Assembly (NCBI GenBank): GCA_965200555.1
Contig: OZ241365.1
Coordinates: 1,832,442 to 1,896,441 of the forward strand
Reading direction: 5' to 3'
Length of the DNA: 64,000 bases
DNA from: Dehalococcoidia bacterium
GTDB taxonomy: Bacteria > Chloroflexota > Dehalococcoidia > UBA2979
This document shows positions 30,001-33,000 of the stretch, piece after piece; the first letter of the stretch is position 1; each line of letters starts with the position of its first letter. The position numbers are program-made.

Positions 30001-33000
30001 GGGCGACAGCGTGGCCCGGCAAGCCGAGGGGGCGGCGGCGCATGACCTCCACGCCCGGCGGCGACGCCCAGCCCACCTACCGGCGCAAGCTGATCGAGGT
30101 GGACCTGCCGCTGGCGGCCATCAACAGGGAGGCGGCGCGCGAGAAGTCGCTGCGCCACGGGCACCCCTCCACGCTCCACCTCTGGTGGGCCCGGCGGCCC
30201 CTCGCCGCCTGCCGCGCCGTCGTCTTCGCCAGCATGGTCGACGACCCCTCCTCGCTTCCCGCCGAGTTCCCCACCGCCGAGGCGCAGCACGAGGAGCGCA
30301 CGCGGCTGCACGGCATCATCGAGAAGCTCGTCGTCTGGGAGCACAGCAACGACGAGCCGCTGCTCGCCGAGGCGCGCTGGGAGATCGCGCGCTCCGTCGC
30401 GCGCTCGCGCGGCGAGCAGCCGCCGCCCCGCGAGGACGCCCCCGCCGTCCTCGGATGGCTCGCCGCCCGCGCCCCCGCCGTCTACGACCCGTTCTGCGGC
30501 GGCGGCTCGATCCCGCTCGAGGCGCAGCGGCTCGGCCTGCGCGCCGTCGGCACCGACCTCAACCCCGTCGCCGTGCTGATCACGAAGGCGCTGATCGAGC
30601 TGCCCCCGAAGTTCGCGAACCTCCCGCCCGTCAACCCGGACGCCGACCGGATGGGCATGACCGCGGGCAAGGGCCGCAACGCGCGCCGCGTCGCATGGCG
30701 CGGCGCCGCCGGCCTCGCCGACGACATCCGCTGGTACGGCCGCTGGATGCGCGAGCGCGCGCGGGAGCGCATCGGCCACCTCTACCCGCCCGCCCGCCTC
30801 GCGGACGGCGGCGAGGCCACGGTCATCGCCTGGCTGTGGGCGCGCACCGTCCCCTGCCCCAACCCGGCCTGCGGCGTCGCCATGCCGCTGATGCGGACGT
30901 TCCAGCTCTCCACCAAGCCTCGCAACCAGCACTGGACGCGCCCCGTCCCCGGCGACGGCGGCATGGCGTTCGAGGTCCAGGACCACGCCGAAGGCGTGCC
31001 GGACGGCGGCACGGTGGACCGCAACGGGGCGATCTGCGTTGTCTGTGGCACAGGGGCCCCGCTCGCCTATGTCCGCGAGCAGGCGCGCGCCGGGCATATG
31101 GGCGAGCAGATGACCGCCATCGTCGCCGAGGGCGACCGCAAGCGCCTGTTCGTCTCGCCCACCCCTGAGCACATCCGCACAGCGACACTAGAACATGCGA
31201 ACTGGCGTCCAGAACAAAAAATGCCCTCGACCGCTCACCTTGTGAGCGGTCGAGGGTACGGAATCTCTCACTGGCATCAGCTCTTCACGGAACGGCAGTT
31301 GTGTGCCTTGACTACCTTTGTGGACCTGCTGGTCGGCGCGGGCGGCGTCCGCTCCATGATCCTCTAGGATCATGGAGCGGACGCCGCCCGCGCCGATGCA
31401 GTCACAACCTACTTGGCATTGGCGATCGGGAGGACCGCGAATGGTGGCTCCAGTTTTGGACGGTGGCGAAACTCCGTCGGCTTTGCCGACGGAGTTTTCT
31501 CCCGTCAGGCTATCCCGATGGTTTGGGACTTCGCCGAGGTGAACCCGTTCTGTACGCAGAACCAGAACTGGCTAGCACAGGTCGAATGGGTTGCCAAAGC
31601 GGTCGAGGGGCTGCCCGCGGCGAACGGCGGCGAGACGCACCAAGCGGATGCGTCCACCACGATCCACGCGGACAAGGGGCCGGTCATCGTCACCGACCCG
31701 CCGTACTACGACAACATCAGCTACGCCGAACTGTCCGACTTCTTCTACGTGTGGCTGCGCCCGGCGCTGCGCGATGTCTACCCGGATTTGTTCGCGGGCA
31801 TCCTCGTACCGATCGAGGAAGAGTTGGTGGCCGCGCCCCGCTTCGAGAACGCGCGGGAGCGCTTCGAGGTGCTGATGGATCGGACGCTGCGGCTGATCCG
31901 CGAGCGCTGCACGGACGACTTCCCGTCGTCGATCTTCTACGCCTACCGGCAGCAGGAAGAGAAACGCGGGGGCGTCGTTTCCACTGGCTGGGACACGATG
32001 CTGACGGCGCTGGTGCGGGCGGGCTTCCAGATCGTCGCGACCTGGCCGATGCATACCGAGATGGCCAACAGGGGGGGTGCGCTCGGCACGAACTCGCTTG
32101 CGACGTCCGTCGTGCTCGTGTGCCGTCCGAGGGCGGAGGACGCGGCGTACGCGACACGGCAAAAGTTCTTCACGGAGCTGAAGGAGGCGATGCCAAAGGC
32201 GCTCGAACATCTGACGCGAGATGGGCACATCGCGCCGGTGGACCTGGCGCAGGCGGCGATCGGGCCGGGGATGGAGGTCTACTCGCGCTACGCCGGCGTC
32301 GAGACGATCGCCGGCGAGCCGGTGACGGTGCGGGAGGCGCTGGGGGCGATCAACCGCGCGGTGGCCGAGTACCACCGCGGCGAGCAGGGCCACCTCGACG
32401 AGCGGAGCCGCTTCTGCGTGGACTGGCTGCGCCAGCACGGGATGGGCGAGGGCCCCTACGGCGACGCGGAGACGCTGGCGCGCACGCACGGCGTCGCGGT
32501 CGAGTCGCTGGCCCCGCGGCTGCTGACCTCGGAAGGCGGCGCGGTGCAGCTGCAGCCGCTGGAGGGCGAGGCCTACGCTGACGATCCGCGCCAGCTGCGG
32601 CTGGGGGGCATCGCGGCGTGGGAGGGGGCGTTCCGCATGGCGCACGCCCTCGACGGGTCGCTGGGCGACACGGGCGTGGCTGGGGCGGCGGCGGTGATGC
32701 GGGCGATGGGGAGCGGGGCGGGCGCGGTCGAGCGGCTGGCGCGCATCCTCTACGCGCACTTCGACGCGCGCGGCGACTCGCGCAACGCGGTGCGCTGGAA
32801 CGGCCTCGCGGCGTCGTGGCGGGACATCGAGGAGGAGGCGTCGCGCGCCGGGCGGCAGGGCGAGATGGGCCTCGGCGGGTGAGCGCGGGCGGCGGCCGGG
32901 GGACGACGCCGTACGCGCTGCGGCGGCGGCTGCGGCGGGGGTACCGCCGCTACGCGCGCGGGGAGGTGCTGCGGCTGCCGCCGGAGCGCTGCGGGGTGTA

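Follow-up and report, generated by a model that had tools for sequence, protein, structure and literature searches.

The stretch of DNA analysed here (the window) comprises 64,000 nucleotides from a Dehalococcoidia bacterium (Chloroflexota; assembly GCA_965200555.1, contig OZ241365.1, positions 1,832,442 to 1,896,441 of the forward strand). It contains hmaB, the N6-adenine methylase gene of a defence island, which is interrupted by one in-frame TAG at the apex of a perfect 64-bp palindrome. The two open reading frames (ORFs) of the gene, 30042..31367 and 31413..32882, lie in one frame with the TAG, and the 15 codons between them (DHGADAARADAVTTY) are stop-free, as a sequence-only reading of this DNA had already described. 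The TAG is the only interruption of 946 codons, with no frameshift and no second stop elsewhere in hmaB, and both halves retain intact motifs, as that reading had noted: the S-adenosylmethionine-binding DPFCGGGS in the N-terminal half and DPPY in the C-terminal half.

The close homologues of HmaB recovered are single chains of 926–960 amino acids, except for one match of 872 and one of 996 amino acids. Because the closest homologues are single chains, the split is not the normal state of the family, and the view of this gene as a methylase of about 945 residues broken only by the TAG holds. The converse idea, that orthologues are naturally divided at the same boundary, applies within the small clade of stop-bearing alleles described below and not to the family at large.

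The databases also contain many C-terminal HmaB proteins of about 450 amino acids (among the matches P0121-P0240) that begin at Met493, an ATG ~153 nt downstream of the TAG at the start of MVWDFAEV; P0122 is the window's own C-terminal ORF read from this codon. Recurrent splitting of the family at Met493 was considered and rejected, since all three loci checked proved to be gene-call or assembly artefacts: L088 and L089 are gene calls at contig edges, and L085 has frameshifts in a 5x long-read contig, one of them in the AAA loop of a hairpin discussed below (site 481). The remaining fragments are probably gene-calling artefacts of the same kind.

A stop codon at the apex of a perfect palindrome

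A repeat search places the stop at the centre of a perfect inverted repeat with 31 nt per arm, 100% complementary and separated by 2 nt, CT (31333-31363 and 31366-31396; Table 1). Folded as a single strand, this palindrome forms a 30-bp stem with the loop TCTA, which is the hairpin of the sequence-only reading. It is the longest perfect hairpin of the 64-kb window and lies far beyond chance: its DNA hairpin energy is −47.4 kcal/mol, where shuffled sequences average −15.8 (z = −12.95), and none of 100 dinucleotide-preserving shuffles contained arm matches. The region reads DLLVGAGGVRSMIL up to the stop and DHGADAARADAV after it. TAG is a genuine stop in this genome of 75% GC, ending 26 of the 50 confident genes in the window, with TGA ending 22 and TAA 2.

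The central CT is the one part of the palindrome whose orientation matters. Inverting it to AG changes ATC CTC TAG GAT into ATC CTA GAG GAT (Leu-Glu), which opens the frame to read ...VRSMILEDHGAD... and restores the Glu that orthologues carry at the position of the stop; the predicted ON-state junction peptide is SMILEDHGADAAR. The two orientations of the centre are ...ATCCTCTAGGAT... versus ...ATCCTAGAGGAT..., and likewise ATCTAAGAT versus ATCTTAGAT. In the related allele L087, where the apex stop is TAA, the same inversion gives TTA (Leu).

For comparison, 80 loci were fetched from genomes and 83 genes were scanned, the closest coming from metagenome-assembled genomes of Latescibacterota, Dehalococcoidia, Poribacteria and Caldilineaceae. 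Identity to the window HmaB is 55–65% in its nearest genomic relatives (L003-L029), and their distribution across phyla points to horizontal spread of hmaB, hairpins included. A syntenic metagenomic contig, L001, is ~95–96% identical to the window over the island and its housekeeping flanks and encodes an intact 943-residue HmaB. The sequence-only reading had asked whether the palindrome or a single arm occurs in related methylases. The palindrome is present in L084 and L087 and its right arm in L086, but none of 82 orthologues has a stem of at least 7 bp at the homologous position (site 441), and the palindrome is therefore specific to this clade.

In the nearest palindrome-free relative of this part of the gene, L088, the sequence is DLLVEVRSLLTEQGADEAYADAV; opposite the stop, L001, L004, L005, L006, L008 and L088 (GAG) have Glu. 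The inner arms still encode VRS and GAD, every left-arm codon having been replaced by the complement of the right arm, and the differences from L088 are multi-nucleotide changes that make the arms mutually complementary, among them a switch of one Ser codon from AGC to TCC. At the outer left arm, VGAGG adds 3 codons and is the complement of DAA[Y/H/R]AD; with 1 further codon at the centre, the net gain is 4 codons, or 12 nt, and both arms align with orthologous residues. This pattern favours the template-switch (fold-back) origin that had been listed among the possibilities. It also led us to reject a miniature inverted-repeat transposable element (MITE) or other inserted foreign element, because the arms consist of the gene's own orthologous codons and a search of the 64-kb window, allowing 3 mismatches, found no copy beyond the two arms themselves and expected none by chance.

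The arms have changed together. The sample that yielded L001 also yielded L084, whose palindrome is likewise perfect and centred on CTCTAG; in it, a C-to-T at the position of 31339 is mirrored by a G-to-A at 31390. In L087, arms of 29 nt pair perfectly about a 3-nt loop, TAA, here too an in-frame stop, and L086 begins at the palindrome centre (CTAGGATC...), so that only a right arm is present, of the L087-type TAC variant and encoding DAAYADAV. Among the three complete alleles (window, L084 and L087), 3 pairs have changed on both sides and 0 on one side only, leaving pairing at 100%. One series runs TAC to CAC to CGC in the right arm, or Tyr to His to Arg at a Tyr that is 90% conserved, and is mirrored in the left arm first by a synonymous Val change, GTA to GTG, and next by Val to Ala, GTG to GCG. 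Since the first step replaces the Tyr by His and is matched by a synonymous Val change, pairing was at that point preserved at the protein's expense. Judged from these aligned alleles, the gene's own sequence supplied the palindrome, whose arms evolve in concert.

Coverage of the long-read contig L084 is 4.3x, and its three further single-base indels are probably errors; L086 and L087 are short-read scaffolds that end at the palindrome. An assembly artefact was nevertheless rejected, as the palindrome and its apex stop recur in three independent contigs, each with its own sequence differences. Between stop-bearing alleles, flanking synonymous divergence (dS) is 0.15–0.3 in the C-terminal part and 0.6–1.7 directly after the stop. 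Flanks so diverged argue that neither palindrome nor stop is "very recent", as the inactivation had first been taken to be.

Sister hairpins, a mosaic cassette and the island

Two shorter hairpins, at sites 400 and 481 of the same gene, and the lower-GC, diverged cassette that contains them (~31155-31920) had escaped the sequence-only reading. Perfect hairpins with stems of at least 9 bp number 32 in the 83 orthologous genes, with 7 at site 400 and 14 at site 481; synonymous-codon shuffles gave 5–18 hairpins against 27 observed. Both sites are all-or-none, with either 13–15 of 15 positions paired or at most 9, which is background, and many orthologues have no hairpins at all. Where a stem is present in orthologues from several phyla, it covaries in sequence and stays perfect: only Watson-Crick pairs occur, and G:U intermediates are absent from the helices. 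At site 481, 9 of 15 pairs have changed on both sides, which 0 of 500 shuffles reach, and the amino acids of the two arms vary jointly (SVG-F-ADG, AGD-F-VAG, AVH-F-VDS, TSD-G-VAS). Palindrome-free orthologues at site 400 keep the right-arm peptide VSGRG next to an unrelated left-arm sequence, which indicates that the conserved right arm served as template and the tolerant left arm was overwritten.

The loops of both hairpins occur in two orientations between identical stems. At site 400 the loop is CTT in the window and AAG in L084, the two being ~97% identical around the hairpin, and the same pair distinguishes L006 from L005; at site 481 it is TTT in L088 and AAA in L089 and L010. In a set of 120 homologues the apex residue of site 400 is only L (16) or K (11), and identical site-481 arms are found with either F or K. 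Comparison of these paired alleles thus shows centre inversions recurring at the two sister palindromes. On the same sequence comparisons, palindromes at site 481 grow as well as flip, with expanded versions in L021 and L086 that have 18-bp arms and extra codons; the one in L086 (~108-145) consists of GGGAAAAGGTACCGGCAA tc TTGCCGGTACCTTTTCCC and adds 4 codons.

Several smaller observations concern the same hairpins. A third exact 12-nt copy (AGCGGTCGAGGG) of the site-400 arm lies 350 nt downstream, in another frame (31598-31609), and could be chance or a template-switch donor. Read antisense to the gene, hairpin 400 together with the CATTTTTT that comes after it on the minus strand has the score of an intrinsic-terminator-like site, and most orthologues have AAAA and TTTT on either side of the site-481 stem.

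All three perfect palindromes fall within 275 bp of the cassette, whose GC dip is common to all hmaB alleles. Compared with L001, the gene is mostly 90–100% identical from 30042 to ~31150, with 78–93% over the last ~250 nt of this part; on the 3' side, identity is 77–92% over 31920-32230 and 90–100% over ~32230-32882. L084 shares with the window only the block ~31195-31440, at ~97%. This pattern indicates a hypervariable, recombining cassette, the variable region being apparently exchanged frequently among co-occurring strains. Another contig, L083, is identical to the window from 31398 on and is preceded by 53 nt of unrelated DNA; its breakpoint, at the right base of the palindrome (31396/31397), may mark a rearrangement associated with the palindrome or a chimeric assembly.

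Profile matches identify the island as an Hma system, also called the DUF499-centred type-1 system related to bacteriophage exclusion (BREX) systems (PADLOC HmaABC; PMC12839542). The DUF1156 methylase HmaB is present, as is the DUF499 ATPase HmaC with its HEPN domain. The Swi2/Snf2 helicase-nuclease HmaA had no match among the main candidate ORFs tested (~18–41 kb), nor is it found in the syntenic L001; 21% of loci are without the fusion (PMC12839542). The concern that a nuclease-intact island with a dead methylase would be toxic to its host is not supported, as the nuclease in question was not found among those ORFs. An accessory nuclease that takes the place of HmaA may be encoded by the 126-residue ORF that overlaps the hmaB stop (32879-33259). 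Between hmaC and hmaB the window has four small minus-strand ORFs (28011-29809), and the corresponding interval of L001 has three small minus-strand genes, one of them for a ParE-family toxin. No recombinase domain was found among the island ORFs searched. A further perfect hairpin lies inside hmaC. Its counterpart in L001, whose hmaC is 96% identical, is imperfect, with GGGCCG for TTG and one mismatch; this clustered multi-nucleotide difference has the signature of a template switch, as read from the two sequences.

Table 1. Features of the hmaB locus and its surroundings (window coordinates).
Feature	Position	Strand	Description
HmaC, DUF499 AAA+ ATPase	24628..28002	+	Intact; N-terminal Swt1-like HEPN domain (Pfam); PADLOC HmaC E=7e-247; 96% nucleotide identity to L001
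Hairpin inside hmaC	25157..25196	+	Perfect 16-bp stem, CCGCCGTTGCCCGCGC...GCGCGGGCAACGGCGG
HmaB, N-terminal 441 codons	30042..31367	+	DUF1156 N6-adenine methylase; Pfam DUF1156 E=1.5e-29; PADLOC HmaB E=3e-133; ends at the in-frame TAG
Central cassette of HmaB	31155..31920	+	Lower-GC mosaic; GC 59-67% vs ~75%; 47-81% identical to L001
Hairpin, site 400	31224..31256	+	Perfect 15-bp stem, loop CTT (31239-31241); encodes PSTAH-L-VSGRG
Left arm of 64-bp palindrome	31333..31363	+	Encodes VGAGGVRSMIL; outer part VGAGG, apparent templated copy, +3 codons vs orthologues
Centre dinucleotide CT	31364..31365	+	Sole non-self-complementary positions of the palindrome
In-frame TAG at palindrome apex	31365..31367	+	Same apex stop in L084 and L086; TAA in L087
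Right arm of 64-bp palindrome	31366..31396	+	Encodes DHGADAARAD; apparent ancestral arm; L086 and L087 read DAAYADAV, keeping the family's conserved Tyr
HmaB, C-terminal 504 codons	31368..32882	+	PADLOC HmaB E=1e-140; DPPY catalytic motif; in frame with the N-terminal part
Hairpin, site 481	31469..31497	+	Perfect 13-bp stem, loop TTT (31482-31484); encodes NSVG-F-ADGV
126-residue ORF overlapping the hmaB stop	32879..33259	+	Conserved beside hmaB in L001, L083, L085, L086 and L089; GIY-YIG matches sub-threshold only

Interpretation of the stop-bearing allele

The explanation that we consider best, with a probability of about 0.5, is that template switching during replication made these palindromes, homogenises their arms and inverts their centres, and that the window carries a possibly reversible OFF state of hmaB. 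A polymerase would have switched templates between short, partly complementary stretches in the helix-loop-helix segment of HmaB, and the left side would have been overwritten with the reverse complement of the right, VG[AV]GG being copied from the complement of DAAYAD. The same process would since have kept both arms identical, mirroring each substitution in the opposite arm, and only the centre, where the stop codon sits, would escape homogenisation. Template switching inverts the centre of a palindrome as well, as has demonstrably and repeatedly happened at site 400 (CTT/AAG) and site 481 (TTT/AAA), and at site 441 the inversion would toggle CTC TAG (stop) and CTA GAG (Leu-Glu, the ancestral state), or TAA and TTA in L087. 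The window would then hold an inherited OFF allele of an Hma, BREX-related methylase, common to related lineages and probably reversible without any recombinase.

The expected marks of template switching are distributed over the sites. Clustered changes that raise complementarity are seen at site 441 relative to L088 and in hmaC relative to L001, and arms change in concert at sites 441 and 481. Spacers that are exact reverse complements between identical arms are found at sites 400 and 481, and site 441 has been seen in one orientation only. We infer that the centre of the 441 palindrome flips at a useful rate and that the resulting OFF/ON switching keeps the gene under selection. The regulated switch or inversion target that the sequence-only reading had envisaged survives in this form, as an inversion of the palindrome centre whose ON state was not observed. 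More tentatively, palindromes throughout the HmaB family might be minimal, recombinase-free invertible elements with 2–4-nt centres, yielding L/K and F/K variants and, in this clade, an ON/OFF switch kept by homogenisation; we hold this wider proposal to be the less probable one.

Evidence of selection on the gene comes from its substitution pattern. Between stop-bearing alleles, the ratio of nonsynonymous to synonymous substitution rates (dN/dS) is 0.15–0.36 over the 50 codons after the stop, 0.23–0.37 over the C-terminal rest and 0.35 upstream, similar to the 0.23–0.46 obtained when the intact L001 is compared. Over the 14 codons that directly follow the right arm, the window and L087 are separated by 10 synonymous and 2 conservative changes. 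From these ratios, both flanks of the stop look to be under purifying selection. In an AlphaFold model of P0001 (of moderate confidence, predicted local distance difference test score 62; a sequence search returned no solved homologue), the site is a predicted loop (441-444) between helices 418-440 and 445-466, at which orthologues carry insertions of up to ~20 residues.

Other observations weigh against a reversible OFF state. The apex is a stop in all four sampled alleles, and no ON allele was seen: no full-length protein falls within the 90% clusters of the C-terminal halves, neither orientation was detected in two Joint Genome Institute metagenome scans and one viral contig scan, the homologue search returned no full-length match above 84% identity, and the predicted ON peptide (MILE or MILD) occurs in 0 of 258 retrieved proteins. 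A protein search with a 108-residue ON-state query gave just two unrelated fragments and carries no weight either way. Among the three best matches, P0001 and P0002 have no palindrome in their DNA, and the protein alignment shows P0003 without the residues that it encodes. How the stop arose is itself ambiguous, as a G-to-T change in a spacer-less CTCGAG centre gives the same TAG, although a centre flip would revert the TAG whichever way it arose. In a family this mosaic, low dN/dS could reflect segments imported from intact alleles, and the G-rich VG[AV]GG insertion, which falls where a predicted helix ends, may by itself be harmful to the enzyme. A phase-variable locus should show both states in related populations, a frame-restoring flip and purifying selection; here only OFF alleles were found, while the predicted flip would open the frame and dN/dS is low. 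An inversion driven by a recombinase fits poorly, given an invertible unit of 2–4 nt and the result of the domain search.

The main rival is a persistent null allele, because no ON allele was found and mosaicism could produce the low dN/dS. Here the palindrome would still come from a template switch, and the stop from a flip or a single G-to-T, but the system would be dispensable or costly, and the dead gene would persist and spread by recombination between co-occurring strains, with nothing regulated and the palindrome kept perfect by mechanics alone. We regard this as a serious contender, though appreciably less probable than a reversible OFF state. It accounts directly for stops at all sampled apexes and for the missing ON allele in every collection searched, and it would suit a system that, with HmaA not found among the ORFs tested, may already be degenerate. 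The conserved Tyr has been overwritten in the window and in L084, L083 is without everything upstream of the right base of the palindrome, and mosaicism as extensive as this can mimic purifying selection. The three additional single-base indels of L084 would also fit decay, but at 4.3x long-read coverage they may be sequencing errors, and the window gene itself, apart from the TAG, shows neither frameshift nor second stop over 946 codons. Harder to reconcile with a dead gene are dN/dS values of 0.15–0.37 on either side of the stop at dS of up to 1.7, together with the almost entirely synonymous or conservative changes just beyond the right arm. Recombination with intact co-occurring alleles, such as L001 from the same sample, should moreover be as apt to eliminate a stop that is neutral or deleterious as to exchange its flanks.

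It is unlikely that the methylase is active despite the stop, either as two assembling polypeptides or through readthrough or ribosome hopping. A stop at the same loop in four diverged alleles, with both halves under purifying selection, would be expected of such a protein; the predicted loop tolerates insertions and could tolerate a chain break, and a naturally split PglX is known from a BREX locus of Brevibacterium casei (PMC9881135). Reinitiation was rejected, however, since no in-frame ATG, GTG or TTG common to the window, L084, L086 and L087 precedes Met493, no obvious ribosome-binding site is present, and the ATG within the right arm is out of frame, its ORF not being conserved in L087. 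A product starting at Met493 would in addition lose the conserved YADAV.TYLALAIGR...W...RQAIP block, yet this block is under selection. Reassignment of TAG, including to pyrrolysine, was rejected because TAG is the commonest genuine stop and L087 uses TAA. Hairpin-dependent readthrough, raised by the sequence-only reading, is not supported, given the same abundance of TAG (26 of 50 genes) and because, with the stop in the ribosomal A site, the left arm is inside or behind the ribosome and the hairpin cannot exist; no independent stimulatory structure follows the stop, be it TAG or TAA. Hopping of the kind known from gene 60 of phage T4 is disfavoured as well: the codons flanking the stop are unmatched, the GTC codons at the stem bases in three alleles are absent in L087, so that the landing codon is not conserved, and the residues that would be skipped are under selection. 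Lacking a start codon, a leaky context and matched hop codons, the gene is less likely to be functionally split or recoded.

Very unlikely, finally, is that the hairpins are RNA or DNA elements (RNase III or other processing sites, terminators, protein-binding cruciforms) made perfect by selection for pairing, for although hairpins 400 and 481 persist across phyla with covariation, with terminator-like features on the minus strand at the former and flanking A and T runs at the latter, and although a 321-nt RNA fold reaches z = −13, the stems lack G:U pairs, the hairpins are all-or-none rather than graded and missing from many orthologues, the loops are exact reverse complements as expected of a DNA-level event, and no known RNA family scored above the Rfam threshold.

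If the centre of the 441 palindrome flips at an appreciable rate, it would represent a form of phase variation that needs only a palindrome and ordinary replication, with neither recombinase nor repeat tract, and it would explain how a defence methylase listed as a "pseudogene" in databases can be under purifying selection. Even without switching, the locus is an unusually clean natural record of bacterial template-switch mutagenesis, with three palindromes in one gene carried across phyla by horizontal transfer, arms co-evolving at the protein's cost and loop flips visible as amino-acid dimorphisms. Compensatory changes are usually taken as a sign of selected RNA structure, and clustered or parallel substitutions as a sign of positive selection; genes such as this one are routinely annotated as split or broken.

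Comparison with known systems

Palindromic mobile elements found in genes include MITEs, repetitive extragenic palindromic (REP) sequences and the Rickettsia palindromic elements. The hmaB palindrome resembles them as a GC-rich palindrome inside an ORF and differs in being single-copy in the window, in having arms that are the gene's own orthologous codons and in adding only 12 nt. Plastid minute hairpin-loop inversions ("flip-flop") are described mainly in non-coding spacers. As in hmaB, relatives carry their short loops in both orientations between perfect stems, independently of phylogeny (PMC12928735, PMC6342102), whereas the loops of hmaB are codons, and a flip alters an amino acid (L/K, F/K) or would toggle a stop.

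As an Hma system (PADLOC HmaABC; PMC12839542), the island matches HmaB and HmaC with E of 1e-133 or lower, and departs from the described system in that HmaA was not found among the island ORFs tested and in the 126-residue ORF, with weak GIY-YIG similarity, that follows hmaB. Programmed variation often affects the methylase genes in related BREX systems (PMC9881135, PMC4365076). Phase-variable BREX and Pgl methylases (PglX inversions, PMC9881135; Pgl, PMC4365076) share with hmaB that the modification or specificity subunit is the variable component and that the gene is under selection though OFF alleles occur in individual genomes. The switches known so far depend on a simple-sequence tract or on long inverted repeats and a site-specific recombinase; hmaB has no adjacent recombinase gene, its invertible unit would be only 2–4 nt, and only OFF alleles were found.

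The closest parallel is template switching at quasipalindromes, a known mutational hotspot in Escherichia coli (PMC7202029). Template switching homogenises the arms of inverted repeats and inverts spacers in coding DNA of yeast (PMC8604942), and it creates and maintains RNA hairpins (PMC8794818). Its three signatures, arms made perfectly complementary, compensatory changes in one step and an inverted spacer, are all seen here. Unlike the known cases, the events in hmaB are concentrated in one horizontally mobile defence gene, with three palindromes within 275 bp, and they persist across phyla, with arms of up to 31 bp and a stop at the centre in several diverged alleles. What is new at this locus is thus this concentration and persistence of palindromes in a single mobile defence gene, the fact that their loops are codons, so that flips appear as L/K and F/K dimorphisms, and one palindrome whose flip point is a stop codon in several diverged alleles.

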